From the NCBI GenBank assembly GCA_050253335.1, contig JBFWJG010000029.1, positions 1-32,547 of the forward strand: a DNA stretch of 32,547 bases. Direction: 5' to 3'. The translations under genes were made by a program, and so were the position numbers. Source of the DNA: Deferribacterales bacterium. GTDB taxonomy: Bacteria > Chrysiogenota > Deferribacteres > Deferribacterales > Geovibrionaceae. How positions within the stretch are numbered: position 1 is the first letter of the stretch; every line of letters begins with the position of its first letter. Under the pieces are notes generated by a model. The model was not told where the DNA came from. It saw nothing but the letters and a program-made list of their open reading frames with translations, and ran no database searches. Shown here piece by piece: positions 366 to 31,662 of the stretch.

Positions 366-559
366 AGCGAAGGTTTGCTTCGCAAACCGCGAGCGTGTAC
401 GCAAACAGGGCACGATGTTCAGGTTTGCGTTATAAGACCTTTATGTTTTGAGTTTTTCCCTACATCCCCAGGGATGGGGATGCGCCGTGCGGAGCGAAGG
501 TTTGCTTCGCAAACCGCGAGCGTGTACGCAAACCCGACACGATGTTCGGGTTTGCGTTA
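366..559 (-). repeat. Two tandem copies (127-bp period) of the three-hairpin repeat family A; full copy 461-559, partial copy 366-432
   Basis: AGCGAAGGTTTGCTTCGCAAACCGCGAGCGTGTACGCAAAC occurs at 366 and 493. Its reverse complement carries the TACACGCTCGCGG...CCTTCGCTCCGCACGGCGCA core also seen at about 15060, 16040 and 31567. Confidence 0.85.
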
Positions 560-567
560 TTAAGTCG

Positions 568-1086
568 TCACTTATTGCGTTTTTCTACAACTGCCCCTTT
601 ATGTATAGGGGTTTCACCAATGCCGAAGGAGGATTCTTCCGTTTTGTGCTCTCCTCCGTCATTAATCTGCCTGTGAAGTTCTCCAAGCCAGGCGGAATCT
701 GAAACTGCGTGATTCACCAGAATCTCAAGCCTTGGCAGAACCTTTCCGCTTATGAGATGTTCAAGCCTATGCACCTCCGGATCCGCTTCTTCCGGTTCCA
801 TTCCCAGTATATCCACAAGGAGCTTTGTGAGGCATTTATCACGTCTTACTATTGATCTCCCTACGGCTTTTCCTTCTTCGGTCATGCCGATTTTTCCGTA
901 GGATTCGTGTGTAAGAAGCCCCATTTTCGCAAGGGTGCTCACCGCCCTGCTTACGCTGGGCAGACTTACGCCAAGTTTTTTTGCTATATCGCTTACCCTT
1001 GCATCCCCGTTTTCCGAAAACCTGTATACCCACTCAAGATAGTTTTCCTGGCTCGGGGTAAGAGGGGCTGAATTCACTGTGTTCAT
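568..1086 (-). CDS. DtxR/MntR-family metal-dependent transcriptional regulator
   Basis: LTPSQENYLE, HTH ARVSDIAKKLGVSLPSVSRAV, and dimerisation/metal region LTKLLVDILG..EVHRLEH; RBS GGAGG upstream. Confidence 0.88.
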   Translation of the reverse strand: MNTVNSAPLTPSQENYLEWVYRFSENGDARVSDIAKKLGVSLPSVSRAVSTLAKMGLLTHESYGKIGMTEEGKAVGRSIVRRDKCLTKLLVDILGMEPEEADPEVHRLEHLISGKVLPRLEILVNHAVSDSAWLGELHRQINDGGEHKTEESSFGIGETPIHKGAVVEKRNK

Positions 1087-1197
1087 CGGAAACCTCCCGA
1101 CTTGTATTTATACAACAAGATATGAAGATCTCCGGTTTAATCAAGGACTAATCAAGACTTATTTAATCTTCTTTCGATAAGCTACTGATCCGTAAAT

Positions 1198-1222
1198 AAA
1201 AAAGGCGGGGTTTCCCCCGCCT
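1198..1222 (-). terminator. Rho-independent terminator after the lipoprotein gene
   Basis: Minus strand AGGCGGGG-GAAA-CCCCGCCT followed by a T run, 11 bp after the stop at 1234. Confidence 0.85.
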
Positions 1223-1233
1223 GTACCGTCTGC

Positions 1234-2583
1234 TTATCGTTTGTAGTCCAAACCTAGAGAATAGAGCGACCACAAAGGTCCGCCGGTTTCATTATCCTCG
1301 GCATATTCAAAATAATATCCTTCATAGGGAGTCCTCACGGCCGTGGGCAGGGAGAATGATGATTTTTCGTAGTACACCATCTCATTGATGCTGATCATCA
1401 GAGCGGAATAGGTTCCGTTATCATCCTCTCCGGACAGGAATATGCCTTTCTTGCCGAAATCGATATATCCTTTGAAGCTCTTCTCATACATCAGAGTCAT
1501 ATTGTCAAACTCGTCATACCCTATATAATCGGCTTCCGCCGTGATGCCGCATCCGTTTGTCAGGCTCATCATCAGTTCAATATAACGGGGCACGTTTGTG
1601 TAGTTATCCATATCATACACATTTGACGACTCAAGATATATTCTGAGCGGAGTCGCATCATCCTCGTCACTCGGCATATCTTCAGGAGAAGGGCAGGATT
1701 CGTTATCATTTCTCATGTCCGCAATTCTCATCATGAAGCCTGTGCCGGAGCATGTGTTGTCGGGCGATGATATGCTTGTGCTGAAAACCTCGGATGTGTT
1801 CGCGGCTATTGTGTAAAGGAGTTCAGATTCATCCGCTATATTGGTAAAAGTGAAGGAATCCTGAGAAATTCTTTTACCTGTGTAAATCCCTATCTTTCTT
1901 GTAGGCGCGAGAGCGGAAACAGAAATAGGCTCTCCCGGCTCAGGAAGCTCATAACCGCCGACATTGAAGGCAAAAGTTCTGCCTTTGTCAAAAAGCATGA
2001 CGGAATCAGCTGTTTCAAAGCCGCCGGGGGCGCAGCGTATAGCGCTTTTGCCTGCGTATGCTCCGTAGATTGAGTAGGCGTTCATGTGATCCAGAGCCTC
2101 TTCTGCGGACTTGGTTATCACGCTTTCCGCTTCAAGGGCGTCCAGAGCGTCCCTGAGCGTCATGTTGTCGCTCACAATTTCGCTGACTGATAAGCCGCTC
2201 TGCTGGTTAAGAACAATGACGCCGCCGGCGACAGTACCCACACTCTGAAGAAGACGGGCTATATCAACAGCGTTGTCATAATCCGCAATATCAAAAGGGG
2301 TGACAAAACCCGCTGCCCTAACTGTGCCGAGGACAAGGGAGCCTAACCTGAAAGTTACATTGTCTCCTTCGTTATAGTCAAACTCTCCGTTTTCATTGGT
2401 AAAGCCTGAAAGACCGCTCGGCTCCGCTGAATAAGCAAGCCCCTGAACCGGAGCATCCGTGAACACGCCGACACTGTCTCCCGTGGGCTCAGGTTCTTCA
2501 ACTGTGGCAGAACTGCTGCCGCTGCACCCTGAAATAAAAGCAAAAATAAGCAACATTGCTAAAAGAGCCAATGTTTTCTTCAT
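1234..2583 (-). CDS. Large acidic lipoprotein of unknown function (start reassigned to MKKTLALL)
   Basis: Signal peptide with lipobox ISGC followed by a Ser-rich linker; GGAGG RBS 7 nt upstream of the ATG at 2583. The N-terminal module GVFTDAPVQGLAY..TNENGEFDY..VTFRLG is typical of surface/adhesin-like lipoproteins. Confidence 0.75.
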   Translation of the reverse strand: MKKTLALLAMLLIFAFISGCSGSSSATVEEPEPTGDSVGVFTDAPVQGLAYSAEPSGLSGFTNENGEFDYNEGDNVTFRLGSLVLGTVRAAGFVTPFDIADYDNAVDIARLLQSVGTVAGGVIVLNQQSGLSVSEIVSDNMTLRDALDALEAESVITKSAEEALDHMNAYSIYGAYAGKSAIRCAPGGFETADSVMLFDKGRTFAFNVGGYELPEPGEPISVSALAPTRKIGIYTGKRISQDSFTFTNIADESELLYTIAANTSEVFSTSISSPDNTCSGTGFMMRIADMRNDNESCPSPEDMPSDEDDATPLRIYLESSNVYDMDNYTNVPRYIELMMSLTNGCGITAEADYIGYDEFDNMTLMYEKSFKGYIDFGKKGIFLSGEDDNGTYSALMISINEMVYYEKSSFSLPTAVRTPYEGYYFEYAEDNETGGPLWSLYSLGLDYKR

Positions 2584-2729
2584 CAGATATCCTCCGCCGA
2601 TATACAATCGTTTGTTAAGTTCAAATGAATTAAACCGCGGCATTCCTGTTCCGTCAACAGAACATGAACAAAAAATGACAATTAAATTTATTCACGTTCA
2701 AAATCAAACACGGCGCAAGGTATTTAGGA

Positions 2730-8781: not shown

Positions 8782-9521
8782 TAGGCCGAAGCCACCTGCG
8801 AAAAAAGATAGTCGCCCAGCTCCTTTCTGTCAGCGTGGGAAGCATCCGCAGGTTCCATGATCCTTACGGACGCCTCAACCGTTTCCACGGAGAACAGCCC
8901 CTCAAAATGCGGCTCAAACTCCATATCCCCGTACCAGCATACCGTGTCCCTGTTTTTACTGCCGAATGGCACCCCGTCTATGTTTTCATATTTAAGACAA
9001 GCGGGAAAAACAGGAACACCCGCTTTTCTGGCGGATTCCATGAACGGCGCACGGAAAGGGAGAACTTTCGAGCCGTCCGTGCTTGTGCCTTCGGGAAAAA
9101 GCATCACCGCGAAACCCGCCTTCATAAGTGAGGCCAGTTCGTTTATCTCCTCCCTGAGGCGGGAGGCATTGCGCCGCTCCACAAAATATGTTCCGCCCAG
9201 TTCCGCCATCATCCCCACAAACGGCTTCTCGTGCATATCCACTGAAGAAATAAAGACAAACGGCCGCAGCGAGGCCATTATTATAATATCCAGATAGGAC
9301 ATATGATTGCATACCACAAGACACCCGCCGGCATTTTTCAGGCGTTCTGCGCCGCTGAAAGAGGTGTTTATCCCCAGCGACCCCAGACCGAGACGGCAGA
9401 AGAAAGTGGTCAGCCTTATGCGGATCCGCCGTTTGCGGATTTCGTCACTCACAAGTGCGCTGACCGCTTTTCCGGTTATTATATACAGATATATGAGGAA
9501 CTTAACAGCAAACTTCCTCAT
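8772..9521 (-). CDS. PlsC-family lysolipid O-acyltransferase (OlsA-like)
   Basis: NHMSYLD (HX4D), FVERR and FPEGT motifs; overlaps and follows the olsB-like gene. Confidence 0.88.
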   Translation of the reverse strand: MRKFAVKFLIYLYIITGKAVSALVSDEIRKRRIRIRLTTFFCRLGLGSLGINTSFSGAERLKNAGGCLVVCNHMSYLDIIIMASLRPFVFISSVDMHEKPFVGMMAELGGTYFVERRNASRLREEINELASLMKAGFAVMLFPEGTSTDGSKVLPFRAPFMESARKAGVPVFPACLKYENIDGVPFGSKNRDTVCWYGDMEFEPHFEGLFSVETVEASVRIMEPADASHADRKELGDYLFSQVASAYYG

Positions 9522-10383
9522 TTTTCCTCTCCGTAAATTTCTTTCTGAATGATTCGTCCATGGTTTTTATATCAAGGTAAGTAAGGTAGTCATAACACTT
9601 GAAAGCCTTATCATAGGCAGGTTCACCGCAGATTACCCCGCCCGCCTTAAAGTACGAGAGCATAAGCGGAGGCACAAGGTTCTCCGCCGCCTCGCGGAAG
9701 GGTGCGAAGCGTTTTTCCTGAATCATCTCAAGCATCTTGTGGTATCTGTCCGTGCGGAACTTTGCCTTGGGCATGGCTCTCAGCTCCTCCGGAGCGAGGT
9801 AGTTTTTCTCAAGGTAGTAGTGCACAAGGGCTATGGTGAGGTTATCCGTTGTTTTGACCGATGAACAGCCGAAAAGGCATTCTGTGGATGTTTCGCTTAT
9901 GTATGTGCCCAGACCTTTCCAGAGAGCGGCTATTGTAGCCCCGCTGCGGTAGTCGGGATGTATGCAGGCTCTCCCCAGTTCCAGTTTTATTCCGGGGAGG
10001 GAGGTTATGTTCTCCATCTTGAACTCGGAACAGGAGTAGAACTTATCGCTGAACAGAGAGCTGTTCAGCCTGTATGTGCCGATTATCTGCCCCGCCTCCT
10101 TGTCTATAACCGCGAGGTGATCAAACAGAAAGTCATATTTATCAACATCCTTGCCTCTGAAGCGCTTCTTATCCAGCAGCTCGCGGTAGAATACCTCATG
10201 GCGCAGGCGGAGAACATCGCTGAGCTCGTCCCCGTTTTCCACAGTTTTGACAAGATATTTGCGTGAATCCAAATTAATTGTGACATTCGGCCTGTAGGTT
10301 CTCAGGCGGAACCTGAACTTTTTTGAAAGTTCCTGAAGAAAATCCGCGGCTTTTCTGATTTTTCCCTTTTTAACAGCGTTCAT
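9502..10383 (-). CDS. GNAT acyl-ACP N-acyltransferase (OlsB-like, ornithine/amino-lipid synthesis; often annotated putative hemolysin)
   Basis: LRLRHEVF, DVDKYD..FDHL, IGTYRL, YSCSEF, ELGRACIHPDYR, LFGCSS and PPLMLSY..G..CGEPA.D..F motifs of the OlsB/Acetyltransf_5 family. Confidence 0.85.
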   Translation of the reverse strand: MNAVKKGKIRKAADFLQELSKKFRFRLRTYRPNVTINLDSRKYLVKTVENGDELSDVLRLRHEVFYRELLDKKRFRGKDVDKYDFLFDHLAVIDKEAGQIIGTYRLNSSLFSDKFYSCSEFKMENITSLPGIKLELGRACIHPDYRSGATIAALWKGLGTYISETSTECLFGCSSVKTTDNLTIALVHYYLEKNYLAPEELRAMPKAKFRTDRYHKMLEMIQEKRFAPFREAAENLVPPLMLSYFKAGGVICGEPAYDKAFKCYDYLTYLDIKTMDESFRKKFTERKNEEVCC

Positions 10384-10479
10384 TCTGCCACTCCGTGTGT
10401 TTTCTTATGTCAGGAGGATATTATTTTGTTGTCAGGGATTGTTGCGCCTGTTGTGAAAAATTCTTCAAATCAAATAAAC

Positions 10480-10519
10480 CTGACATTTGTTTTACACAGC
10501 CGCGACATAAAACTGACAA
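10480..10519. promoter_or_regulatory. Four 11-bp-phased direct repeats resembling PhoB/PhoP (Pho) boxes
   Basis: CTGACAT (10480), TTTACAC (10491), GCGACAT (10502) and CTGACAA (10513) with exact 11-bp spacing. CATAAAACTGACA resembles the enterobacterial CTGTCATAAAACTGTCA box. Confidence 0.65.
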
Positions 10520-10573
10520 GGGAGGCTTATAGAAAACATTAGCAAACAGATGACAATACACAGGAGAGAACAA

Positions 10574-12985
10574 ATGGCAAAAGCAGATTTGCACTGTCAC
10601 TCCAAATTTTCCAACCACCCCACCGAATGGTTTTTGCAGAGGCTCGGTTCCGCCGAATCATACACCGAACCGGAATACATCTACCGCACAATGAAAGAAA
10701 GAGGGATGGACTTCGTGACCGTCACTGACCACAACAAGATGGACGCATCCCTTATACTCAATGAAAAATACCCCGAAGACACCTTCACAGGGGTGGAATC
10801 CACAGTCTATTTCCCTGAGGACGGCTGCAAGATACACTGCCTTGTTTACGGGCTGAGCGAAAGCCAGTTCGCTGTGATACAGAAGATACGGCGGGACATT
10901 TACGACTTCCGTGACTACATAAAGGAACAGAACCTCGCCTACTCGGTAGCCCACGCCACATATTCCGTCAACAACAGGCTCAATATCGGTCATCTGGAAA
11001 AACTTATTCTCCTCTTTGATATTTTCGAAGGGATAAACGGCGGGCGGGGCAAGCTCCACAACATGACGTGGGTTAACGCTCTGGAGGGGCTCTCCCCCGA
11101 TAAGATAGACGAACTCGCCTCCAGACATAATATTAAACCCTTCGGTTCATGCCCGTGGATCAAGGGCTTCACCGGAGGCTCTGACGACCATGCGGGTCTG
11201 TTCCTCGGAAATACATACACCATAACGAAGGCCGCAACGCCTCAGGACTTTCTGGAAAAGGTAAAAACCAAGCAGACAAGGCATTCAGGCAACTACAGCA
11301 GCTTTCACTCACTGGCTTTCACAGTGTATAAAATCGCCTACGACTTCACCAGAAACCACAAAAACATGGCAGGAGCAGAGGGGCTTTTCAACAACATAAC
11401 CTCATACATCTTCGAGGACAGAAAACCCACCCTCCTTGAGCGTCTCAAGCTGAAAAGCATGAAAATGCGCAAATCGGCGGATGGAAGCAAGGTCAGGCGT
11501 CTGGTTACTGAGCTTGTGGAGGATGTCCGCGGTCTCACGGACGGCAATATAAACCGCAAGCTCTCCGTTGTTTACGACAAGGCGACGGATATTGCCGATG
11601 AATACACAAAGATGGCTCTCTCCGGACTCACCGGAGATGCGAAAAACTACAGGCCGGAGGAGTTGGTGCGCAGCATCACCTCATCCCTCCCGGGAATATT
11701 CCTCAGCGTGCCCTTTTTCACCTCATTCGGCCACATGTACAAGGATCGCCGCCTCGTGGACGAGATAGAACAGCGATTCTCCGTCCGCTCCACCAGAACA
11801 AAAAAGAAGATACTCTGGTTCACGGACACAATAACCGACCTCAACGGTGTCTCCGTAACTCTCCGCACCATAGGCAGACTGGCGCACGAGCAGGGGTATG
11901 ACCTTAAAATTGTCTCCTGCCTCACCGAAGACGAGATAGACCACCGCCTCCCGCCGAACTATGTGAACCTTCAGCCGATATACTCCTTCGCTATGCCGTA
12001 CTATGAAAAGCTCACGGTCAAAATCCCCTCCGTGCTCAAGGCACTGGAAGATATTTACGCCTTTGATCCGGACGAGGTGTATATATCAACCCCCGGGCCA
12101 GTGGGGCTTGTGGGACTTCTGGCGGCGACGCTGCTGAATGTGAAAAGCTCCGGAATATACCACACGGACTTCACCAAGGAGGTTTACGAAATAACCTCCA
12201 ACGACTCGCTCAAGGTGCTGGTGGAAACATACACCCGCTGGTTCTTTGATTCCGTGACGGAGCTTAAAACCACCTCGGCGGAATACATGAGCCTGCTTTC
12301 CGAACGGGGGATGGCGCGCCACAAGATGAGCGTCTTCCACAGGGGGATAGACGCAAGGCTCTTCTGCCCCATGAAAAGTGACGGGGAAGGCTTCTTCACC
12401 CTCGCATACGCAGGCAGAATATCGAAAGACAAAAATCTCGATTTCCTGCTGGAACTGTTCGGCAGACTTAACGGAAAATACTCAAACCTCAGGCTGATAA
12501 TGGCGGGGGACGGGCCTTACCTTGATGAAGTGAAAAACAGGACAAAAGGGATGACAAACGTCCTGATCATGAACGAAGTGGAACATGCACGGATGCCGGA
12601 GGTTTACGCGAAGGCGGATCTCTTCCTCTTCCCCAGCACAACGGACACCTTCGGCATGGTGGTGCTTGAGGCGCAGGCATGCGGAGTTCCGGCTATCGTG
12701 TCTGACGAGGGCGGCCCCAAGGAGATAATCGCCGATAAGGAAACCGGACTGGTCGCCTATGCTAATAACATGGAAGACTGGATGCACAAAACTTCCCGCA
12801 TGATAGAGCTCGCAGCATCAAAGCCCTCTGAATATGCCCGTTTCTCCGAAGCGGCACGGACAAGGGTTATGTCTGTCTTCAACTGGGATAAGGTTCTGCG
12901 GGACATCTTTGCCAAAAACAAAGCTGAAAACACACCTGAGAAAAGCGCAAACCTGCTCAGGGAAGTCTCCGCCTCGGTAGCCTGA
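10574..12985 (+). CDS. Fusion of a PHP-family phosphoesterase and a GT4 glycosyltransferase (start reassigned to MAKADL)
   Basis: PHP motifs DLHCHS, VTDHN, GVE, AH and GGSDDH; GT4 motifs DTITDLNGV, STPGPVG, YHTDF, YAGRISKDKN and DTFGMVVLEAQACGVP; AGGAGA RBS before ATG 10574. Confidence 0.88.
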   Translation: MAKADLHCHSKFSNHPTEWFLQRLGSAESYTEPEYIYRTMKERGMDFVTVTDHNKMDASLILNEKYPEDTFTGVESTVYFPEDGCKIHCLVYGLSESQFAVIQKIRRDIYDFRDYIKEQNLAYSVAHATYSVNNRLNIGHLEKLILLFDIFEGINGGRGKLHNMTWVNALEGLSPDKIDELASRHNIKPFGSCPWIKGFTGGSDDHAGLFLGNTYTITKAATPQDFLEKVKTKQTRHSGNYSSFHSLAFTVYKIAYDFTRNHKNMAGAEGLFNNITSYIFEDRKPTLLERLKLKSMKMRKSADGSKVRRLVTELVEDVRGLTDGNINRKLSVVYDKATDIADEYTKMALSGLTGDAKNYRPEELVRSITSSLPGIFLSVPFFTSFGHMYKDRRLVDEIEQRFSVRSTRTKKKILWFTDTITDLNGVSVTLRTIGRLAHEQGYDLKIVSCLTEDEIDHRLPPNYVNLQPIYSFAMPYYEKLTVKIPSVLKALEDIYAFDPDEVYISTPGPVGLVGLLAATLLNVKSSGIYHTDFTKEVYEITSNDSLKVLVETYTRWFFDSVTELKTTSAEYMSLLSERGMARHKMSVFHRGIDARLFCPMKSDGEGFFTLAYAGRISKDKNLDFLLELFGRLNGKYSNLRLIMAGDGPYLDEVKNRTKGMTNVLIMNEVEHARMPEVYAKADLFLFPSTTDTFGMVVLEAQACGVPAIVSDEGGPKEIIADKETGLVAYANNMEDWMHKTSRMIELAASKPSEYARFSEAARTRVMSVFNWDKVLRDIFAKNKAENTPEKSANLLREVSASVA

Positions 12986-14244
12986 TGTCTCTGGGGATTA
13001 ACGATTTTTTGAAAAATGCCGGAACTTTTCTGAAAGGCAGAGCACCGGGGCAGGCGGTAATCCAGCTTACCGACAGCTGCAACGCGAAGTGCCCCCAATG
13101 CGGAATGCGCGCTCAGGAAAAGTTTGAGCGGCACCGCCTGCACGATGAACGGCTGTTCGCCATGATAGACCGCGCGGCGGAAAACGGCGTAAGCGCAATA
13201 TCCTTCACCGGCGGGGAGCCCTTTCTCCATACGGATTCGCTGATAAGCTGCATTAACCATGCATCATCAAACGGAATAAAATTCATCCGCACAGGCACAA
13301 ACGCCTATTTCCTCACAGGGCACGACAAGCCCGACTTCACGGACAGAGTCAGACGCATTGCAGAGAAGATAGCCTCCACCAAGCTTTACACCATATGGTT
13401 CAGCCTTGACACATGGAACGCAGAACTCCACGAAGAGATGCGGGGGCTTAAAGGGGTTGTGAAAGGGATGGAAAAAGCTCTGCCAATCTTCGCCGAATAC
13501 GGCATATACCCTTCCGCCAACCTCGGCATAAACAGAAATGTATCCTTCGGCGAGCTTCCCGAACCGGCTTCTGATGAATCAAAAGCCGCTTTCCGTGAAA
13601 GCTTCAGGGAAGGATTCAGACGGTTTTACACATTCGCGGAAAATCTGGGGTTTACCATTGTCAACGCCTGCTACCCCATGAGCGCGGACGGAAACACAGT
13701 CTACAGGGCGGAATCTGCCGACAGGATAGTCCGCTTCACCGCAGATGAAAAAATAGAGCTGTTCAGCGCACTCTTCGAAACTATCCCCGAATACCGCTCC
13801 CGCCTGCGGATTTTCACTCCCCGCTCTTCCCTTCTCAGCCTGCTCAGGCAGTACAAAGGAGACGAAACGGCAGATTACGGATGCCGCGGCGGAATAGATT
13901 TCTTCTACATCGATTCCCAAAACGGACACGCCCACCCCTGCGGTTTCCGCGAAGGTGAGGACATGGGCAGATATGAGGACTTCGAGGCAAAAGGCTTCGG
14001 CCTCAGGGCAGACTGCCGCAGGTGCGACTGGGAATGTTTCCGCGATCCCTCAACCCTTTTCGGTCCTGTCACAGAGTTTTTCGCTCATCCGGCAGGCCTC
14101 ATAAGCCGTTTCGCCAATGACAGGGAGTTTTTCCGCCTCTGGCTGGAGGACATACGCTACTACGCCGCCTGCGGTTATTTCAACGGAAGAGAAAAACCGG
14201 ACTACGCAAAATTATCACGCTTTAAAACCATAAAACCGCTCTGA
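12985..14244 (+). CDS. Radical SAM enzyme with a C-terminal SPASM/twitch-like Cys cluster
   Basis: CNAKCPQC (CX3CX2C), FTGGEP, C-terminal CRGG..HPC..CRRCDWEC; start overlaps the upstream stop (TGATG). Confidence 0.9.
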   Translation: MSLGINDFLKNAGTFLKGRAPGQAVIQLTDSCNAKCPQCGMRAQEKFERHRLHDERLFAMIDRAAENGVSAISFTGGEPFLHTDSLISCINHASSNGIKFIRTGTNAYFLTGHDKPDFTDRVRRIAEKIASTKLYTIWFSLDTWNAELHEEMRGLKGVVKGMEKALPIFAEYGIYPSANLGINRNVSFGELPEPASDESKAAFRESFREGFRRFYTFAENLGFTIVNACYPMSADGNTVYRAESADRIVRFTADEKIELFSALFETIPEYRSRLRIFTPRSSLLSLLRQYKGDETADYGCRGGIDFFYIDSQNGHAHPCGFREGEDMGRYEDFEAKGFGLRADCRRCDWECFRDPSTLFGPVTEFFAHPAGLISRFANDREFFRLWLEDIRYYAACGYFNGREKPDYAKLSRFKTIKPL

Positions 14245-14784: not shown

Positions 14785-14810
14785 AACAGGCTTTTTATGT
14801 TCTTCCCTTT

Positions 14811-14960: not shown

Positions 14961-14966
14961 GTATCT

Positions 14967-15158
14967 TAATGCGGCTTTTCTTCCTGAAAAGCTTACTTCA
15001 CTGCTTTCAGCAGTTCGTCTGTTTTGATAATGCGGAATTTACCGTCCATGGAAATTCCGCATACACGCTCACGGGCGGATAAACCGCCCTACGCTCCGCA
15101 CGGCGGCTTTTCTTCCTGAAAAGCTTATTTCACTGCTTTCAGCAGTTCGTCTATTTTG
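14967..15158. repeat. 56-bp direct repeat of the opuAC 3' end flanking a partial family A element (15028-15105)
   Basis: 14971-15026 matches 15103-15158 with 2 mismatches. Between them lies TAATGCGGAATTT..AAATTCCGCATACACGCTCACGGGCGG-ATAAA-CCGCCCTACGCTCCGCACGGCG. Confidence 0.9.
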
Positions 15159-15982: not shown

Positions 15983-15998
15983 TTATCTTTCCTCCTTT

Positions 15999-16334
15999 TA
16001 TTGATAATTCAAAATTTATTATCCTAAAAATTTTGAATACACGCTCGCGGCAGGATAAACCTGCCTTCGCTTCGCACGGCGCAGTTCCTTCCATGGAACT
16101 GTAGCCGCGTTTCCGCAAACGCCATGTATTGATAATTCAAAATTTATTATCCTAAAAAATCCCGCATACACGCTCGCGGCAGGATAAACCTGCCTCCGCT
16201 TCGCACGGCGCAGTTCCTTCCATGGAACTGTAGCCGCGTTTCCGCAAACGCCATGTATTGATAATTCAAAATTTATTATCCTAAAAAATCCCGCATACAC
16301 GCTCGCGGCAGGATAAACCTGCCTCCGCTTCGCA
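15999..16334 (+). repeat. Tandem array of 2.6 family A units (128/129-bp period) between opuAB and opuAC
   Basis: TATTGATAATTCAAAATTTATTATCCTAAAAA at 15999, 16127 and 16256, each followed by ATACACGCTCGCGGCAGGATAAACCTGCC; the third copy is truncated at 16334. Confidence 0.92.
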
Positions 16335-16351: not shown

Positions 16352-16422
16352 CGTCATTCTGAGCGTCAGCGAAGAATCTCGGTTTATTGCCCTGCATGAG
16401 ACTGCTTCACTTCTTTCATGAC
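16352..16422. repeat. CGTC/TGTC-type REP doublet remnant (family D)
   Basis: CGTCATTCTGAGCGTCAGCGAAGAATCTC followed by a degenerate partner GAGACTGCTTCAC..CATGAC, matching the widespread GTCATTCTGAGC..GCGAAGAATCT REP pattern. Confidence 0.6.
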
Positions 16423-16445
16423 CGCGGAATAACACTGAGCAGTCT

Positions 16446-18709: not shown

Positions 18710-19528
18710 TTATCTGCCGCTTATGAAGCGGAGAGTCTCTTTCTTTCTGTTATCCGGGCATGTGTCTATGCAGTCCCCGCAGTTGTGGCAGAGGAGGCTG
18801 CTTCCGTCCTTCACAGGGTCAATACCCATGGGGCAGACCTTTCTGCATGAACCGCACATGGAACAGCCGTCCGCAACTCTTTTAAGGTGCATCCCCCTCT
18901 CGGATTTGAAAAGCGAAAGGAAGGTTCCCGTCGGGCAGAAGAGCCTGCACCAGAAAAAAGGGAAAAGCACGAACTCGGCTATTATCAGGGCAAGGATAAA
19001 CACCAGCTCGAATGTGACATAGTGAAACTTAACCAGCACAAGCGCTTGGGAGGAGATGATCCCGGGAGCAGAGATAAGGTTAAGCAGGGGTATGCCCGCA
19101 ACGCCCGCAAGCGTTATGAAGCAGACAAGGATCAAGAGCCTTGCTGTTTCTGTCCGCCTTTTGCCTTCCGCCGAGTAAACGGGGAAGCTCTTTTTCATCC
19201 CCAGCTTCTTCTTCACGAAGCTTACGCCCTCCACAATGAAGTGATAAGGGCACATCCACGAACACCAGATCCTCCCCGCAAGAATCATGAGCAGGATAGG
19301 GATAATCACGGAGAGAGCCATATATATATTCACCGATTTTGAAGACACAGCCGCCTGAAAAACCGCAATGGGATCGGCAGCGGCGGCGCTTCCCACATCA
19401 ATGGAATAGAAAGTGCCTTTGATGAAATATATTTCCATTATGTTCAGAAGGGGGATGATAAACATCATCAGAAAAACAGCCGTCTGAACCAGCCTTCTGT
19501 ATTTTTTTATTCTACTCTGTCCAGCCAT
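18710..19528 (-). CDS. napH: Quinol dehydrogenase membrane subunit NapH
   Basis: TM helices, GRIWCSWMCP and FWCRLFCP motifs, two ferredoxin motifs CSMCGSCRKVCP and CHNCGDCIDTCP. Confidence 0.9.
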   Translation of the reverse strand: MAGQSRIKKYRRLVQTAVFLMMFIIPLLNIMEIYFIKGTFYSIDVGSAAAADPIAVFQAAVSSKSVNIYMALSVIIPILLMILAGRIWCSWMCPYHFIVEGVSFVKKKLGMKKSFPVYSAEGKRRTETARLLILVCFITLAGVAGIPLLNLISAPGIISSQALVLVKFHYVTFELVFILALIIAEFVLFPFFWCRLFCPTGTFLSLFKSERGMHLKRVADGCSMCGSCRKVCPMGIDPVKDGSSLLCHNCGDCIDTCPDNRKKETLRFISGR

Positions 19529-20264
19529 CTATCTTATCCGTGGTTTCATAATCAAACTTGAACTCAGGCTTTTCGCCCGCGGAGTCGATGCTCATCTTTT
19601 TCTGAATGGCGTCATCACCGCCGTATCCGCCGCCGTCGTCTGCTTTTTTGAAATTTCTGCGGGAGCGCTGGTAGTAGAGACCGGCGAGATCCTCGTTCCC
19701 CATTCCGGCCGGAATAATGCTGACAGATTTCGGCTCCGTGGGGCATTTTTCCACACATATGCCGCACCCTGTGCACTTCTCCGTGATAACCGGAAGAAGA
19801 TACTGCTCCATTATGATAGCTTCGTCTGTATATGGGCATACGTTGTAGCAGGTGGAGCAGATGGTGGCGAACCCCTGTGTTCCGCCTGCATTTTCATCTT
19901 TTACATAAAGATAGTTCAGGCATTTGTCCTGCTCTATGTAGGCAAGACCCATGCGTACCTTTTCCGGCTCGTTCAGTTTGGGGTCAAGGGCTCCTGTTGG
20001 GCATACGGAGGGGCAGAGCATACAGAGATAGCAGGCGCGGTCATCGGCGTAAACATAAGGAGTTCCGATCTGAAGCCTGTCGAAAAGATCCGCTCTTTTG
20101 ACAGACTCATAAGGACAGACCTCAATACACCGCGCACAGCGGATGCAGAGTTCCATGAATTTCTCTTCCGTAACCGCTCCGGGCGGGCGGAGCCTGTTGC
20201 GCCTGAAGTATCCTTTGAAAGGGTTTTTGTTCAGGTAGTTTTTCACCTTTTCACGAAGGCTCAT
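19512..20264 (-). CDS. napG: Ferredoxin-type protein NapG
   Basis: LRPPGA, CIRCARCIEVCP, CYLCMLCPSVCPTGAL, CSTCYNVCP, CTGCGICVEKCP. Confidence 0.9.
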   Translation of the reverse strand: MSLREKVKNYLNKNPFKGYFRRNRLRPPGAVTEEKFMELCIRCARCIEVCPYESVKRADLFDRLQIGTPYVYADDRACYLCMLCPSVCPTGALDPKLNEPEKVRMGLAYIEQDKCLNYLYVKDENAGGTQGFATICSTCYNVCPYTDEAIIMEQYLLPVITEKCTGCGICVEKCPTEPKSVSIIPAGMGNEDLAGLYYQRSRRNFKKADDGGGYGGDDAIQKKMSIDSAGEKPEFKFDYETTDKIDGWTE

Positions 20265-20581
20265 ACAGCTTCGTCGGTTTTAATCCCCGCACTTTTGAAG
20301 AGTTCCTCCAGCGCGGGCGCCTCGCCCCGTTCCAGCATTTTTTCCACTTCTTCGCCGAAGTACATGTAATGATGGGCTATATCTTTTATATTCTCGTCCT
20401 TTTTCAGACTGTTGGTTATCTGTTCCAGAGTTCCGGTGTTTTCTGTCTCAATGGCGGCCACTGCGGTCATTCCATCGTCGGAGCTGGCGTAGATCTCTAT
20501 CTGCGGGTAAGCTTTCAGCGCTTCAAGGCCTGCTTCTCTTCCGCCTTCTTCGAATGTTATTATGCTGCCGGTGAATATCAT
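20261..20581 (-). CDS. napD: NapA maturation chaperone NapD
   Basis: About 100-aa acidic protein directly after napA with a NapD-like pattern (GSII..P.IEIYA..G..VAAIE). Confidence 0.78.
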   Translation of the reverse strand: MIFTGSIITFEEGGREAGLEALKAYPQIEIYASSDDGMTAVAAIETENTGTLEQITNSLKKDENIKDIAHHYMYFGEEVEKMLERGEAPALEELFKSAGIKTDEAV

Positions 20582-20657
20582 AAATAAACTCCTTTAATAT
20601 TAAGACCCGCCCGCCTTATGAATGATAAGTGCGGGCAGGCCTTTAAGAGATGGAGGT

Positions 20658-23039
20658 TTAAGCGAAAGGAGCGTTAATATCGGATATGAAATATTTGTCC
20701 GCAACGTCTTTCGGTCCGCTTATGCGTTTGATCCGCACGGCGGCTATTTTAAACTCAGGTTCTTTTGAGTCGGGGTCAACAACGTCATTGCAGACGAAGT
20801 TGATCATCCTGGCGTATACCTGATCGTGCCAGGGCACGAAAGCAACACCGGGAAGAGTTCCTTTAGTGATGCTTGCGGGCATAACGTTTCTGCCCCTTCT
20901 GCTCACTATCTCCACCATGTCCCCTGAGGTTATGCCGAGCTGCTTCGCGTCATCCGGATGGATTTCAACATAAGCGTTCGGGTGTGTTCTCGCTATTTCG
21001 GGAATACGCATTGTCATAGTTCCCGTGTGCCACTGCTCAACAACCCTTCCTGTGGTGAGATAGAAGGGATATTCCTTATCGGGCACTTCTCCGGGACCGT
21101 CGAACGGACGGAGGAAGAGGTTCAGCTTGCCTTCCTTCTTCGCATCTGCGTAGAAGTAGATAGTCGCGCTGTCGGGTATGCCGTCTTTCTCTGCCGGATG
21201 CTCAAACATGGGGTCGAGCCCTCTGACATAGCGTCTTTCCGTTCCGGGGTGGTCAACGGACGGGCAGGGCCACTGAAGACCGGCCTTCTCTTTTTTCAGC
21301 CTGTCGTATGTTGCGCCCCAGAGGGTGTGCTCTGTGTCTTTTGTAACTGCGATATAGTCTTCCCATGCCATCTGGTTTGCTTTCATGGAGTCATTGCCGT
21401 TCCATGGGATGAGTTTTTCCAGACCCATTCTTTTGGCTATCTGCGCCGCTATCCAGACATCAGGCTTTGCCTGTCCGACCGGTTCAACCGCTTTTTCGGT
21501 AAGCTGGCTTCTGCGCTCGGAGCATCCGTAAACCCCGCCTTTCTCATAAAGGAAGGCAGCGGGAAGGATAACATCCGCAAGCTGGGTTGTTCTTGTGGGG
21601 AAGATATCCAGAACCACAAGGAAGCTGTCCTGCATACCCTTGATATATTTATTGAGGTTGGGCAGAGACTGGGCAGGGTTTGTGGTGCTCACAAGCATTG
21701 CCTTAACGGGTTTTTCCGCATCGTTTTCAGCACCGAGCTTCTCGAACATGAGCATGGTGTGGAAGCCGGGTTTGGGGTCAATTGTCCCTGCGGGGATATT
21801 CCATGATTTTTCCACATGAGCGCGCCATTTGTCGTTTGCGACAGGCTTTGTTCCGGGAAGGAGATGGGCAAGGGCGCCTGTCTCACGCACACCGCCGCAG
21901 GCATTGGGCTGGCCGGTAAGCGAGAAGGAATCCGCGCCGGGTTTGCCCATGTTGCCGGTGATTATGTGGAGGTTGTGCACAAGGTTGTTCGCCCAGAGGC
22001 CTCTTTTACGCTGGTTAAGACCCATACACCACATTGACATGGTAGCGCCGCTTGTGGCGAACCACTCGGCCGCTTTCACTATGTGGTCTGCGGGGCATCT
22101 TGTGAGTTTTTCAACCGCTTCGGGAGTGAACTGGGCAAGGAATTTTTTGTATTCCTCTAAATCCACAACCTCTTTGCCTGTGGTAAGGCGTGCGTGCTTG
22201 GCTATGAAATCCCTGTCATGGAGGTTTTTGGAGATAATCACGTTCGCCATTGCGTGGAATACCGCAAGGTCGGTACCCGGGTCATTGGGCAGCCAGAGGT
22301 CGGCGATTTTCGCCGTGCTGGTTTTTCTGGGTTCACAGACAATTATTTTCACATCGGGGTTTTTCATTTTATGGCGCATTACCCTTCTGTAGATTACAGG
22401 GTGGCATTCGCTCATGTTTGAGCCCACGATGAATATGCATTTTGAGTTTTCTATATCCGAGTAGCTTCCCATCGGCTCATCGGAACCGAAAGTTGATATA
22501 TAGCCCGCAACAGCGGAAGCCATGCAGAGCCTGGGGTTGCCTTCCACCATGTTGCTGCGGAAGCCGCCCTTCCAGAGTTTGTTGAATGTATAGGTCTCCT
22601 CCGTGGTGCACTGGCCGCTGCCGTAGTAGGCTACTGCGTCCTTGCCGTATTTCTCACGGAAGTATTTGAATTTGCTTGCGACAAGGTCAAGAGCCTCGTC
22701 CCATGAGGCTGATTTGAATTTGCCGTCTTTCTGGCGGATCATGGGTGTTTTCAGCCTGTCAGGGTGATACATGCACTTATACGCAAGGAAGCCCTTGACG
22801 CAGAGGAAGCCGAAGTTTGTTTTGGCATCGGGGTTTCCTTTTATGGCAACCGCCTTGCCGTTTTTAACTCCGACATAAACACCGCATCCGGTTCCGCAGA
22901 AACGGCATGCGCCTTTTACCCACTTATCAACATCCGCGCCTTCGGCGGAGTGAGCCGCTTCGGGAAGGGATATTCCGACAGAAGCCGCAGCGCTGGCCGC
23001 TACGGTGAATTTAATAAAATCTCGTCTTGAAACGTTCAT
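20658..23039 (-). CDS. napA: Periplasmic nitrate reductase catalytic subunit
   Basis: Tat signal SRRDFIK, [4Fe-4S] motif CRFCGTGC..C, GSGQ, NPRLCMASA (Mo-ligating Cys), SLTGQPNACG, LTTGRVVEQWHTGTMT. Confidence 0.96.
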   Translation of the reverse strand: MNVSRRDFIKFTVAASAAASVGISLPEAAHSAEGADVDKWVKGACRFCGTGCGVYVGVKNGKAVAIKGNPDAKTNFGFLCVKGFLAYKCMYHPDRLKTPMIRQKDGKFKSASWDEALDLVASKFKYFREKYGKDAVAYYGSGQCTTEETYTFNKLWKGGFRSNMVEGNPRLCMASAVAGYISTFGSDEPMGSYSDIENSKCIFIVGSNMSECHPVIYRRVMRHKMKNPDVKIIVCEPRKTSTAKIADLWLPNDPGTDLAVFHAMANVIISKNLHDRDFIAKHARLTTGKEVVDLEEYKKFLAQFTPEAVEKLTRCPADHIVKAAEWFATSGATMSMWCMGLNQRKRGLWANNLVHNLHIITGNMGKPGADSFSLTGQPNACGGVRETGALAHLLPGTKPVANDKWRAHVEKSWNIPAGTIDPKPGFHTMLMFEKLGAENDAEKPVKAMLVSTTNPAQSLPNLNKYIKGMQDSFLVVLDIFPTRTTQLADVILPAAFLYEKGGVYGCSERRSQLTEKAVEPVGQAKPDVWIAAQIAKRMGLEKLIPWNGNDSMKANQMAWEDYIAVTKDTEHTLWGATYDRLKKEKAGLQWPCPSVDHPGTERRYVRGLDPMFEHPAEKDGIPDSATIYFYADAKKEGKLNLFLRPFDGPGEVPDKEYPFYLTTGRVVEQWHTGTMTMRIPEIARTHPNAYVEIHPDDAKQLGITSGDMVEIVSRRGRNVMPASITKGTLPGVAFVPWHDQVYARMINFVCNDVVDPDSKEPEFKIAAVRIKRISGPKDVADKYFISDINAPFA

Positions 23040-23050
23040 CTTTCTCTCCG

Positions 23051-23404
23051 CTACTTGTAGTCTTTCTGCTTATGTACAGTGAAGGTGTGGACCGGGTGGC
23101 ATGAGGCGCAGGTTTTGTCCGCCATGAAGTTGTTCTCGACCTGTTTTGCGTGACATCCCTGACAGATTTCGTTTGACGGTGATTTTTTGAAATTGAACTC
23201 ATCGCCGTGGCATACGCCGCATTTAACGCCTGTGAAGCCGTGCGCGCTCTCTTCCCACTGCTTGGCGGCATCCGGAGTCACTTCAACGTGACATTCCATA
23301 CAGTCTTTGTTCCCTATTTCCTCCGGATGCTTATCCGCATAAACGGCGAAAGCCGTGAGGAACAACGTCAGCGCGATGAAGCCGACCTTAATAAAATTAA
23401 ACAT
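23051..23404 (-). CDS. napM: Small periplasmic tetraheme cytochrome c (NapM-type)
   Basis: Signal peptide plus four CxxCH motifs (CMECH, CGVCH, CQGCH, CASCH) immediately upstream of napA. Confidence 0.82.
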   Translation of the reverse strand: MFNFIKVGFIALTLFLTAFAVYADKHPEEIGNKDCMECHVEVTPDAAKQWEESAHGFTGVKCGVCHGDEFNFKKSPSNEICQGCHAKQVENNFMADKTCASCHPVHTFTVHKQKDYK

Positions 23405-30060: not shown

Positions 30061-30218
30061 AGCGGCCTCGGCAATGAACTGCGCCGACAGAAAAATTCGG
30101 ACGGCGTAAGTCTTGTATATGGTTAAAAAATACACCGCTTATGCATTCTTGTCAATCAGGGCTGGGGGATTGGGGGGTAAAGATTAAAGTTATTGAGACA
30201 CAGAGGCGACAGACAGTT

Positions 30219-30536
30219 CTAACCCTGTCCGCTTTGCAGTCTTTTAAATATTTCTTTATATACTTCTAAATTTTCTCTCTTCCCTATGCCGACAACAAAC
30301 ACCAGAAGCTCATAATCTATTACCTGATAGACGATTCTGACCTGCTTTTTATGGACATAGAGCTTATAACAGCCGTTCAGATCAATTCCTGCCTTGCTTC
30401 CCAGTGATTCGCCTTTGAAAGGATTGCTCCGAAGAGCCTGAAGCTGTTTAACCACAAGTTTCTTTATGCTGCCATCAAGTCTTTCTATATCCTCAACAGC
30501 TTTTTCAGAAAGAGAAACATTGTACGAGCTACTCAT
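30219..30536 (-). CDS. Type II toxin, RelE/ParE (RelE/StbE) family
   Basis: YNVSLSEKAVEDIERLD..NP..G..L..CYKL..RIVYQV..V.VVGIGKR..VY pattern; overlaps the antitoxin stop. Confidence 0.88.
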   Translation of the reverse strand: MSSSYNVSLSEKAVEDIERLDGSIKKLVVKQLQALRSNPFKGESLGSKAGIDLNGCYKLYVHKKQVRIVYQVIDYELLVFVVGIGKRENLEVYKEIFKRLQSGQG

Positions 30537-30813
30537 CTTCTAAGCCCAGTCTTTTCAGTGCCTCATCCAAAGGAACCTTTTTCGAATTTTTTCTTTCTTC
30601 AATAAGCTGAGCTATTTCAACATGTTCTGCCAAGTCCATGACAGACTTCATAAGTTCGTATTCCTGTACAGGAAGTACAATCATCTCTGGATTATTGTTT
30701 CTCAGCACCACAACGCGGTTTTTATCTCTGAGGAGCTCTGCGACTTTATTCATATTTCTTGAAAAGCTGCTGGCACTCATCATTTCATTAAGCTCATACT
30801 TTACACCATACAT
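30529..30813 (-). CDS. Type II antitoxin, Phd/YefM family (start reassigned to MYGVKY)
   Basis: SASSFSRN..VVVLRNNNPEMIVLPVQEYE Phd pattern; GAGGTG RBS before ATG 30813. Confidence 0.85.
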   Translation of the reverse strand: MYGVKYELNEMMSASSFSRNMNKVAELLRDKNRVVVLRNNNPEMIVLPVQEYELMKSVMDLAEHVEIAQLIEERKNSKKVPLDEALKRLGLEDE

Positions 30814-30834
30814 GCTACACCTCTCACAGACAAT

Positions 30835-30872
30835 ATTACGCATAATTATACGTAATTCAATGTAAATATCAA
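30835..30872 (-). promoter_or_regulatory. Sigma70-like TA promoter with a palindromic operator overlapping the -10 element
   Basis: Minus strand TTGATA-N16-TATAAT; near-perfect palindrome ATTACGCATAATTATACGTAAT at 30835-30856. Confidence 0.7.
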
Positions 30873-30930
30873 TTTAACAATTTCTTTTTATTCAGTTGGA
30901 GAAAATCACAAACTCAATTTCTAATATAGC

Positions 30931-31350
30931 ATGAAAGAAATCGAACTCATAATCAGCAGCCTGATAGTTATAGCAGGCTGGATATTCAACGGTTGGTGGT
31001 CATCTAAAAGAGCTGTTCAGGATGATAAAAGAAAAATAATTACAAGCCATTTAATTGATGCTTATAGAATATTAAACAATGAAGTCGCACACAGAAAATC
31101 AACTGAAGAACGTAATAAGAAGCTTGAAAGCCTCATTGGAGCAATTCAACTATTTGGAAATGAAGAACAAGTTGAGTTAGCTAAAAAGCTTGCATATGAT
31201 ATAGCCAAAGGCGGTACTTTTGAGCTTGACCCCTTGATCAACTCTTTAAAAGACAGCCTTAGAAAATCACTCAACTTAAAACACATTCAAGGCAATGTCA
31301 CATTGGTTCGCTTTAATGACAATGATGTTAATAAAAGAAATCAAGACTAA
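30931..31350 (+). CDS. AT-rich hypothetical protein with an N-terminal TM helix
   Basis: 139-aa ORF with hydrophobic N-terminus (LIISSLIVIAGWIF); composition visibly more AT-rich than flanking genes; no obvious RBS. Confidence 0.65.
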   Translation: MKEIELIISSLIVIAGWIFNGWWSSKRAVQDDKRKIITSHLIDAYRILNNEVAHRKSTEERNKKLESLIGAIQLFGNEEQVELAKKLAYDIAKGGTFELDPLINSLKDSLRKSLNLKHIQGNVTLVRFNDNDVNKRNQD

Positions 31351-31392
31351 TGCCAATAATTACAATTATAAAAAATCAAGTCTTTTAAAAAG

Positions 31393-31477
31393 TGCCCGAA
31401 GCCGGAATTGAACCGGCACAGAATTAAATTCCGAGGGATTTTAAGTCCCTTGCGTCTACCTATTCCGCCATTCGGGC
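31393..31477 (-). tRNA. tRNA-Leu(TAA), 85 nt, CCA not encoded
   Basis: Minus strand GCCCGAA..TGGCGGAATAGGTAGACGCA, anticodon arm AGGGA-CTTAAAA-TCCCT, long variable arm, T-arm GCCGG-TTCAATT-CCGGC, acceptor TTCGGGC-A. Confidence 0.96.
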
Positions 31478-31533
31478 TAAACCTTATAGAATCGGTTTAG
31501 TTTTATATGCTGAATTGTATTGTGTGTCAATTA

Positions 31534-31662
31534 CCAACGGAAATTTATCATCCATGAAAATTTACGTACACGCTCGCGGCAGGGAGAAGCCTGCCTACGC
31601 TACGCACGGCGCAACCCCATCCATGGGGTTGTTCAAACATATATCCAACGGAAATTTATCAT
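31534..31662 (+). repeat. Full family A copy plus the 18-bp start of a second copy
   Basis: GTACACGCTCGCGGCAGG-GAGAAG-CCTGCCTACGCTACGCACGGCGCAACCCC-ATCCAT-GGGGTTG; CCAACGGAAATTTATCAT at both 31534 and 31645. Confidence 0.85.

Follow-up and report, generated by a model that had tools for sequence, protein, structure and literature searches.

The window, a stretch of 32,547 nucleotides from a Deferribacterales genome (G000), carries copies of a mobile, non-autonomous element, namely a non-coding, intergenic repeat of ~ 105 bases made of three hairpins and two conserved linkers. On balance, we think it probable that the element moves in the form of a folded single strand through a nicking and strand-joining enzyme, which would join the fixed end of the element to a GA in the target. 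An earlier note, made from the letters of the window, had proposed a non-autonomous mobile hairpin element, or else an undescribed structured RNA, that it could assign to no named family. A mobile hairpin element is borne out by an empty/filled pair of sites with a target duplication, and the lack of a named family by the absence of any Rfam match at threshold. The note did not mention which strand is read, that the loops are of the CsrA type, that duplications are long, or that TwoAYGGAY and YPAL repeats are akin to the element.

On the strand with GGA in its loops, hairpins 3, 2 and 1 follow one another in this order from 5' to 3', separated by the two linkers, with GGA in the loops of hairpins 3 and 1; a tail then extends ~ 11 nt past hairpin 1 and stops at a fixed point where the 3' junction reads CA|GA. 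This is likely the true reading strand, opposite to that of the earlier note, given that both outer loops then show the CsrA-site pattern CA(N)GGANG and that the element is in sense in 111/141 co-directional gaps. Both loops fit the pattern in 93/141 copies of G000 and in 170/286 copies of its congener G003, and perfect hairpins with a GGA loop number 311 vs 15-88 for seven other loop triplets. In the RNAalifold prediction, the three stems are independent of one another and the termini stay unpaired; the stems have 6-11 pairs. A longer sibling form of ~ 145 bp is also seen. The stems had been said to differ while keeping their pairing and, over 79 copies, all three indeed covary, with double changes in 22/23 pairs, 90.7% of cells paired vs 61.6% after shuffling, and a covariation score of 0.756 vs 0.220 for shuffled and at most 0.17 for slid controls. 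The two linkers are conserved as described, except for the terminal 'CGG' and 'CC', which vary and make up the opening base pair of hairpin 2 (CG in 61 and GC in 52 of 131 unique 15-mers). Selection on the structure, which the earlier note had deduced from the stems, is not established: between the orthologous copies compared, double changes outnumber single ones 35:10, an excess that module swapping or template switching could yield without it. G-T exceeds A-C on the GGA strand of hairpin 1 (52:27, p 0.007), while the excess is not significant in hairpin 2 (13:8) and hairpin 3 (23:14); it could be a mutational bias.

The comparison of occupied and empty sites gave one clean pair, located where a phage lysozyme gene ends. 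The empty allele, with a single 24-bp segment, is seen in viral contigs L282 and L283; in metagenome contig L279, the element stands between two copies of this segment (2 differences), of which the second opens with a GA that lies 27 nt past the hairpin-1 GGA, and no element remnant follows it. G002 has a copy of this prophage (C1, ~ 384.5-385.4 kb) which exceeds L279 by 47 bp over the part that matches. The fixed end meets GA 26-29 nt past the hairpin-1 GGA; the position of the other junction varies between 14 and 90 nt farther downstream in the target, and the segment in between (X) is duplicated. The junction was tested on 207 arrays from three genomes, which gave 55 unique duplications. 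In 17/55, GA coincides with the junction (null 7.5%, p 3e-7), and in 37/55 it is within 3 nt of it (null 44.5%, p 5e-4), 27 of these 37 being at offsets 26-29. A duplication of any kind is present in only 71/207 arrays, 18/55 duplications show no GA near the junction and 11/55 are remnants of an earlier copy and not a true X; in other genera, junctions were seen that are not at GA (L220, L221, L232). The idea that X generally ends in GA was rejected, this being true of the phage site only. Tandem (X-element)n arrays display the same junction, and the spacer copies the upstream flank in 44/72 scored arrays (a trailing copy being absent in 28 and present in 16), vs 0/72 in the shuffled control. 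At five sites (C22:31477; C41:8059 and its G003 orthologue; G003:2580139; G003 1669873 on the minus strand; L206), X holds the ribosome-binding site or start of the next gene, which is not easily explained by later tandem copying.

All seven copies reported in the window were recovered at their places: covariance model R1, whose training set of 79 rows includes four of them, gives exactly 7 matches there, with 50-115 bits (Table 1).

Table 1. Positions of the element copies and of associated features in the window.
Feature	Position	Strand	Details and basis
Full copy	462..568	+ (GGA strand)	112.8 bits; hairpin 3 462-482, hairpin 2 499-515, linker 516-525, hairpin 1 526-557, tail
Partial tandem copy without hairpin 3	366..437	+	54.3 bits
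Full copy	15020..15124	-	98.5 bits; fixed end CA|GA at 15020/15019
Duplicated segment X, first copy	15125..15151	-	Final 27 bp of opuAC, GA to stop codon
Second X (14993-15019), then hairpin-3 remnant (14971-14992)	14971..15019	-	Direct repeat and cross-genome comparison
Full copy, tail abutting opuAC Shine-Dalgarno	15997..16107	-	115.2 bits
opuAC Shine-Dalgarno AGGAGG	15991..15996	-	Start codon 42 nt from hairpin-1 GGA
Second copy of 129-bp tandem array, hairpin 1 with hybrid arm	16121..16236	-	93.5 bits
Third copy, without hairpin 3	16250..16334	-	50.3 bits
Unrelated CGTC-type palindromic repeat, at truncated array end	16353..16380	+	Repeat search
Full copy between aminotransferase terminator and tRNA-Leu	31523..31637	-	90.2 bits
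18-bp repeat of one hairpin-1 arm	31645..31662	-	Direct repeat

The first full copy is antisense to a DtxR/MntR-type gene (stop at 568-570), and in G003 this site holds an array with an identical hairpin 1 and other hairpins 2 and 3. At site 2, the copy begins immediately past the stop codon of opuAC, which encodes a glycine-betaine binding protein; the same 3' site shows a single X and a hairpin-3 remnant in G003, one full, unduplicated element in G001 and none in G002. The array upstream of opuAC (site 3), where the two outer copies have a mismatched, hybrid hairpin 1 arm, has three copies in G003 with a near-identical spacer and different hairpins 1 and 2, and is empty in G001. At the tRNA-Leu (site 4), a copy is found in G001 and G003 and half of hairpin 1 is kept in G002; the 18-bp repeat beside the window copy is read as a remnant of a second tandem copy. 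Given that element remnants are kept at site 2 in G003 and at site 4 in G002, both are read as losses and not as empty targets, and several 'empty' chromosomal sites are likewise losses retaining a remnant. A terminator role at the tRNA-Leu was not supported, the terminator scan calling the host terminator only. The Rfam scan of the window returned tRNA and two sub-threshold plastid motifs, and nothing else.

Counted genome-wide, copy number is high, with 165 copies at 102 loci in G000, 308 at 138 loci in G003 and ~ 150-300 per genome in the genus, and diverged forms are present in 15/15 genomes of the bacterial family. G000 has 130 occurrences of the strict core vs 0 in three shuffles, and the reversed-pattern control gave 0 in 41/41 genomes. 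The exact core is found 0 times in viral contigs, and blastn against plasmids and phages gave no credible match. In GTDB genomes, 40 of its 41 loci belong to one congener, the other being a chance match without hairpins; in metagenomes, 35 of 37 come from one congener-like assembly and the other two are chance-like. Copies do lie 3' of genes in both orientations, as had been noted, but with a bias (45:9 in G000, 66:21 in G003). In the complete genome of G003 (n = 138), the sense orientation has an odds ratio of 2.5 (p 4e-4), and the GGA strand is the leading strand with an odds ratio of 1.67 (p 0.01), the latter bias being from this one genome only. Both species are occupied at 55/66 comparable loci, and the majority of copies are old and passed on by descent; arrays have been homogenised, hairpin modules differ among orthologous loci, and copies truncated in 5' as well as in 3' occur.

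The partners suggested in the earlier note were a RAYT/Y1 transposase, a GIY-YIG nuclease or another nuclease. Y1_Tnp (PF01797) is found in 0/4 genus genomes, the element is absent beside RAYT/Y1 genes at 12 loci from relatives, and for GIY-YIG G000 has only one UvrC-sized frame of 615 aa. DDE_Tnp_1 was found in 0/5 genomes, DUF4277 in 0/16 and Y2_Tnp in 0/16, the positive control of this last search being likewise silent. RVT_1 is present in 1/5 genomes searched and 1/4 genus genomes, though not in the one with most copies, and an Ssn-like nuclease in 1/4 genus genomes. Judged by translation, genes flanked on both sides by the element are host genes, mostly housekeeping, with 0 nuclease-like, and the 226 reading frames beside 77 loci in G001 and metagenomes include no candidate mover. 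In G001, a gene with DUF4357 close to site 4 was set aside, being part of the variable island beyond the tRNA-Leu. By analogy with Ssn-type repeats, the enzyme may have been lost from most genomes. Such orphaned repeats have a local precedent, since G000 and G003 hold 95 and 80 CGTC repeats, respectively, and an Ssn gene is found in neither.

In the mechanism that we favour, the active form would be single-stranded DNA, which transcription and the lagging-strand template would make available. The chemistry may be like that of TnpA(REP), with dinucleotide cleavage, then primer extension, then strand transfer; in the TnpA(REP) model, as excerpted from PMC3333891, the last two steps add a tandem unit. 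Selection would then retain insertions whose duplication restores a gene end or a ribosome-binding site. Against this chemistry, HUH transposition is not known to make a target duplication. A more far-reaching version, which we regard as doubtful, is an undescribed insertion route common to twin-GGA-hairpin repeats, with an enzyme outside Y1/DDE/RT/Ssn, in which the fixed end would join GA with up to 90 bp duplicated, wiring dozens of genes into CsrA-FliW. Under such a route the CsrA hairpin would land ~ 29 nt upstream of the Shine-Dalgarno because Shine-Dalgarno sequences are GA-rich.

Among described repeats, the element resembles TwoAYGGAY and YPAL, and no published description of this family was found in the literature on related repeats, CsrA sites and TnpA(REP). 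With TwoAYGGAY (RF01731), it has in common two hairpins with AYGGAY-type loops, a high and variable copy number and other repeats at fixed positions; the best score in G000 is 22.4 bits vs a cut-off of 43, and the window has no match. Putative CsrA binding has been proposed for TwoAYGGAY in the available text of PMC2864571, PMC4333381 and bioRxiv 10.64898/2026.09.22.753630. There, the two hairpins are neighbours sharing one basal stem, and most doublets are divergent, whereas in the element the two linkers and a third hairpin come between them, a basal stem is not predicted and arrays are head-to-tail. YPAL/RU-2 of Yersinia is likewise intergenic, without terminal inverted repeats and with a variable target duplication, and the excerpts of PMC2229807 report no TA ends, co-transcription with upstream genes and no named mover. 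Its sequence as printed in Table 1b of PMC2759123, compared by eye only, shows two GGA-tipped hairpins. However, YPAL is 168 bp long, contains internal inverted repeats and shows 3-26-bp duplications (PMC2229807, in part), compared with ~ 105 bp, three separate hairpins, duplications of up to 90 bp, the fixed CA|GA end, tandem arrays and another phylum for the element.

Structured intergenic repeats with a dinucleotide junction distant from the hairpin, local growth into tandem units and persistence after gene loss are also features of REP/BIME with TnpA(REP)/RAYT (PMC3333891, in part). The element differs by its lack of a tetranucleotide tag, its long target duplication, a genus without Y1 gene and a GA/TC junction instead of the C|T of E. 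coli TnpA(REP) given in the same excerpts; moreover, the REP/REPIN likeness drawn in the earlier note is not supported as to inverted doublets, mixed-strand loci numbering 0/102 in G000 and 1/138 in G003. Long, variable direct repeats (8-514 bp) arise on insertion of IS1549/IS1634, according to excerpts of PMC2266710, but these are insertion sequences with a DDE transposase, while the termini of the element are unpaired and no such transposase was found. A MITE of an IS1634-type transposase was rejected on the same grounds, namely no terminal inverted repeats and no cognate DDE transposase in the DDE_Tnp_1 and DUF4277 searches. The SRM/NTS repeats of Ssn nucleases are also single-stranded hairpin repeats with a sporadic nuclease gene (PMC11893778, in part), and such repeats co-reside with the element in intergenic regions. 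Identity with SRM was dismissed, as the published SRM pattern gives 11 and 13 sites vs 165 and 308 elements.

As a side function, the two loops are predicted to bind CsrA in mRNA, hairpin 1 and the Shine-Dalgarno GGA ~ 29 nt away forming a two-site operator. GGA does lie in hairpin loops on the transcribed strand and csrA is present, adjoining fliW; the role as a CsrA target is a prediction from sequence. The commonest hairpin-1 tip matches the CsrA SELEX consensus RUACARGGAUGU (PMC7652899, in part). At 39/118 sense-downstream loci the tail abuts the next gene start, usually at the Shine-Dalgarno GA (start codon abutting in 14/48 sense loci of G000 and 25/70 of G003 vs 11% expected, p 5e-4 and 6e-8). 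The Shine-Dalgarno GA stands at +28 to +30 in 24/35, within the 10-63 nt given as the CsrA bridging range in excerpts of PMC7652899. Such data, together with the excess of GGA loops, the loops retained in diverged relatives and the loci shared by both species, would also suit a domesticated CsrA-binding RNA cassette, kept copy by copy for translation or mRNA stability and rarely spread by host repair, in which the same two-site operator would act at gene starts and 3'-region copies would soak up CsrA. We consider this unlikely. Indeed, the hairpin-1 loop is no better retained in Shine-Dalgarno-abutting copies than elsewhere (34/39 vs 158/185, p 1.0), 36/41 genomes have csrA, many element-free ones among them, and the stems are longer than those of SELEX hairpins, mostly of at most 4 pairs (PMC7652899, in part). 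The same abutment is predicted by the GA rule with purging of intragenic insertions, and the fixed end and the duplications are left unexplained by a cassette.

The footprint of target-primed reverse transcription is a 3' end that is precise and a 5' end that is less so, together with microhomology of 2 nt and duplications of variable length, which the ends and duplications of the element fit, as do the sense bias and the 5'-truncated copies. The RNA would end at the fixed tail, its GA would pair with a nicked or nascent DNA end in TC, and reverse transcriptase would copy it, a staggered second nick giving the long duplication; yet RVT_1 is found in only 1/4 genus genomes, which is not the most copy-rich one, 3'-truncated copies exist too, and no discrete RNA could be made out in the unstranded contigs of four RNA runs from one study of a related strain, hence we give retrotransposition little chance. 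Equally slight, to our mind, is the prospect of spread without any dedicated enzyme, through lagging-strand template switching at hairpins, with Okazaki flaps producing the duplications and linker gene conversion the homogeneity. It would agree with the failure of every search for a partner gene, the leading/lagging bias, the predominance of double over single changes and the different junction motifs of other genera, but a junction fixed within 4 nt at a set dinucleotide is more enzyme-like than slippage, and invariant unpaired linkers resemble a protein site. It is highly improbable that the element hitchhikes on nicks made by an Ssn (GIY-YIG) nuclease beside CGTC-type repeats. At 7/258 loci, a CGTC repeat does begin where hairpin 3 has its foot, 27-28 nt beyond the core and in one orientation, CGTC neighbours in the same and opposite orientation number 25:12, G007 has an Ssn-like gene at a distance of 48 nt from an element relative, and the cut made by SsnA lies a few bases upstream of the SsnA repeat (PMC11893778, in part). 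Nevertheless, ~ 3% of loci are concerned, in two cases the CGTC repeat occupies the place of a missing hairpin 3, Ssn homologues also occur in element-free families, and SsnA requires its own repeat sequence according to the same excerpts.

Repeats of the TwoAYGGAY and YPAL types are frequent and still lack an explanation, and as of PMC2266710, in the portion available, there was no mechanistic model for target duplications that are long and variable. The present family offers a precise footprint: one end is fixed, the target is a GA, the strands are used unequally and a phage provides an empty/filled pair. In addition, it defines ~ 39 genes with a predicted CsrA two-site operator.

The element, a ~105-base non-coding three-hairpin repeat, was modelled from 79 copies, 4 of the window and 75 of the complete congener genome G003. 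This covariance model displays exactly seven matches in the window, and all seven copies of the earlier note lie at the positions it reported. In the 2.58-Mb genome to which the window belongs (G000) the strict core is found 130 times, compared to 0 in three shuffles, and a profile search yields 191 matches, of which 165 at 25 bits or above are distributed over 102 loci. G003 contains 308 copies in 138 loci (2.8 of 3.0 Mb covered). Furthermore, covariation is present in all three stems, with double changes at 22 of the 23 pairs and a score of 0.756 versus 0.220 when shuffled. The exact core is present in 4/4 genomes of the genus (61–228 matches each) and in 0/37 other genomes of the order. Diverged forms are detected by the model throughout the family (15/15 genomes) and in one further family (3/4 genomes); the remaining 21 genomes gave no match. 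The diverged forms that were read retain both GGA loops and the middle hairpin, often with a gene-end duplication. A longer sibling of ~145 bp, having the outer hairpins in common with the element, gives 20 pattern matches in two genomes, and some orthologous loci carry it instead of the short form.

When the element is read on the complement of the earlier note's strand, the hairpin tips show the sequence CA(N)GGANG and the order is hairpin 3, linker, hairpin 2, linker, hairpin 1 and tail. The motif is found at hairpin 1 in 119/141 copies of G000 and 251/286 of G003, at hairpin 3 in 103/141 and 191/286, and at both together in 93/141 and 170/286 respectively. Of the co-directional gaps, 45 of 54 in G000 and 66 of 87 in G003 have this GGA strand as the sense strand, according to gene orientations from a purpose-made simple gene caller. 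Mixed-strand loci number none in G000 and one in G003. The G003 loci comprise 41 convergent and 10 divergent ones, compared to 111 and 239 for all gaps of at least 100 bp. In a logistic fit for G003 (n=138), sense orientation (odds ratio 2.5, p 4e-4) and replichore (odds ratio 1.67, p 0.01) have separate effects. On the GGA strand of hairpin 1, G-T pairs exceed A-C pairs (52:27, p 0.007), while this excess is not significant in hairpins 2 and 3.

Ortholog comparison shows that many seemingly empty chromosomal sites are losses, but the comparison of occupied and empty sites that the earlier note proposed has a clear case in a prophage. In the metagenome contig L279 the element lies at the end of the phage lysozyme gene, flanked by two copies of a 24-bp segment which the viral contigs L282 and L283, identical over the stretch compared and possibly one lineage, carry once and without the element. 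The second copy in L279 begins at a GA located 27 nt beyond the GGA of hairpin 1, and from there the sequence continues through the original end of the gene to the ribosome-binding site that follows. At five further sites the duplicated target segment (X) includes the ribosome-binding site or start of the next gene. Duplication on arrival would be far simpler than an element that broke the gene at first and was duplicated and precisely lost later.

Among 266 arrays of three genomes, 207 were testable, and in 71 of these (55 once orthologues were removed) the upstream flank is repeated directly after the element, over a median of 42 and a maximum of 90 bp. Of the 55 duplications, 17 have GA exactly at the junction (null 7.5%) and 37 have it no more than 3 nt away (null 44.5%), counts which are diluted by 11/55 being remnants of an earlier copy; in 27 of the 37 near-GA cases it lies 26–29 nt past the hairpin-1 GGA. 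At site 2, behind opuAC, 27 bp of the gene end (GA to stop) are duplicated beyond the element. Spacers of at least 14 bp were analysed in 72 arrays, after exclusion of 62 whose spacers were shorter and of 7 located at the edge of a contig: 44 copy the upstream flank, 28 without and 16 with a trailing copy, 6 match downstream only and 22 neither flank. Hence, the same junction serves local amplification. In several second X copies (G000 C26, C41, C79 and their G003 orthologues) the junction GATC has become GCTC or GTTC.

Occupation is shared with G003 at 55 of the 66 comparable G000 loci, 54 in the same orientation, with 15 more lacking an orthologue; conversely, 54/94 G003 loci are occupied in G000. 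Hairpin identity in 43 parsed orthologous pairs is 0.71–0.81, compared to 0.43–0.54 in random pairs, and is below 0.7 in 10–16 orthologous pairs per hairpin. In hairpin 2 these pairs display 35 pairing-preserving double changes versus 10 single changes, and at site 3, the array before opuAC, both species have three copies with a nearly alike spacer and different hairpins 1 and 2. Such differences point to module exchange and array homogenisation, so that covariation by itself is no proof of the selection on structure put forward in the earlier note. Genome-wide, the copies of G000 and G003 cluster in core operons, examples of which, as named from translations, are recA, dnaA, hrcA-grpE-dnaK-dnaJ, tuf-rpmG-secE, prfA and rpmE. 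In the G000 orthologue of G003:C1:2580139, an element remnant apparently supplies the opening codons of the following gene.

Further features of the window
Feature	Position	Description
Second repeat family	1-345	Three tandem copies, ~105-bp period; C-rich/G-rich hairpin pairs
Acyltransferase/glycosyltransferase cluster with radical-SAM gene	9502-14244	Acyltransferase and glycosyltransferase presumed from translations; radical SAM assigned by separate annotation
Third repeat family	14805-14962	Two long A/T-rich hairpins behind MarR gene
CGTC-type repeat	16353-16380	Pattern count 95 (G000), 80 (G003)
Periplasmic nitrate-reductase-like operon	18710-23404	Presumed from translations
ParE-type toxin, Phd-type antitoxin, unknown 139-aa frame	30219-31350	Adjoining tRNA-Leu
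tRNA-Leu integration site	31393-31477	
TTGACA/TATAAA	31502-31530 (-)	TTGACA in element tail, TATAAA 17 nt further, upstream of tRNA-Leu; not called by promoter scan

Numerous intergenic regions across the genus contain units like those of the second family. The third family is retained in G003, present in partly inverted form in G002 and absent in G001 (the latter two being other genomes of the genus). Inserts at tRNA-Leu measure ~4 kb in G003 and ~34 kb in G002, with a tRNA repeat of ~60 bp, and the latter contains a prophage related to L279. The region of G001 matching the toxin-antitoxin stretch carries a DUF4357 gene.

When the following gene is encoded on the GGA strand, the distance from the hairpin-1 loop to the start of that gene is 28–50 nt at 14/48 loci of G000 and 25/70 of G003 (about ten being orthologous pairs), compared to 11% under uniform placement, and the Shine-Dalgarno GA is at +28 to +30 in 24/35, at the fixed end of the tail or 1–2 bases beyond. 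The gene csrA, which adjoins fliW, is found in 36/41 genomes, and PMC7652899 gives for CsrA a SELEX consensus, a 10–63 nt bridging range and a hairpin-plus-Shine-Dalgarno mode. A CsrA link of the element is predicted only. The hairpin-1 loop is kept in 34/39 Shine-Dalgarno-abutting copies and 158/185 elsewhere; being no better kept where it abuts counts against a regulatory role. It is kept slightly oftener in sense (143/166) than in antisense (37/51) copies (p 0.03, uncorrected).

A RAYT or other nuclease partner flanked by the element, as the earlier note envisaged, did not turn up in the mover searches; Y1_Tnp, GIY-YIG, Ssn-like, RVT_1, DDE_Tnp_1 and DUF4277, flanked genes and locus-side frames gave no candidate. 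CGTC-type repeats are plentiful in G000 and G003, both without an Ssn gene, and thus present-day absence of an enzyme excludes no former one. Within the genus an Ssn-like gene is observed in G002 only. The fixed end, the dinucleotide target and the replichore bias lead us to favour as the mover an enzyme that would nick and join single strands, as does the TnpA(REP) model of PMC3333891, in which primer extension and strand transfer give tandem units.

Among known families, YPAL is the closest in working, with variable duplication and no terminal repeats (PMC2229807, PMC2759123), and TwoAYGGAY the closest in appearance (PMC2864571, PMC4333381, bioRxiv 10.64898/2026.09.22.753630). The element scores below the cut-off of RF01731 (TwoAYGGAY) and belongs neither to REP/RAYT nor to IS1634-type MITEs (PMC2266710). 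Literature searches at the level of listings returned no published description of the family. We conclude that the family is real, mobile and undescribed, and of a known broad kind.
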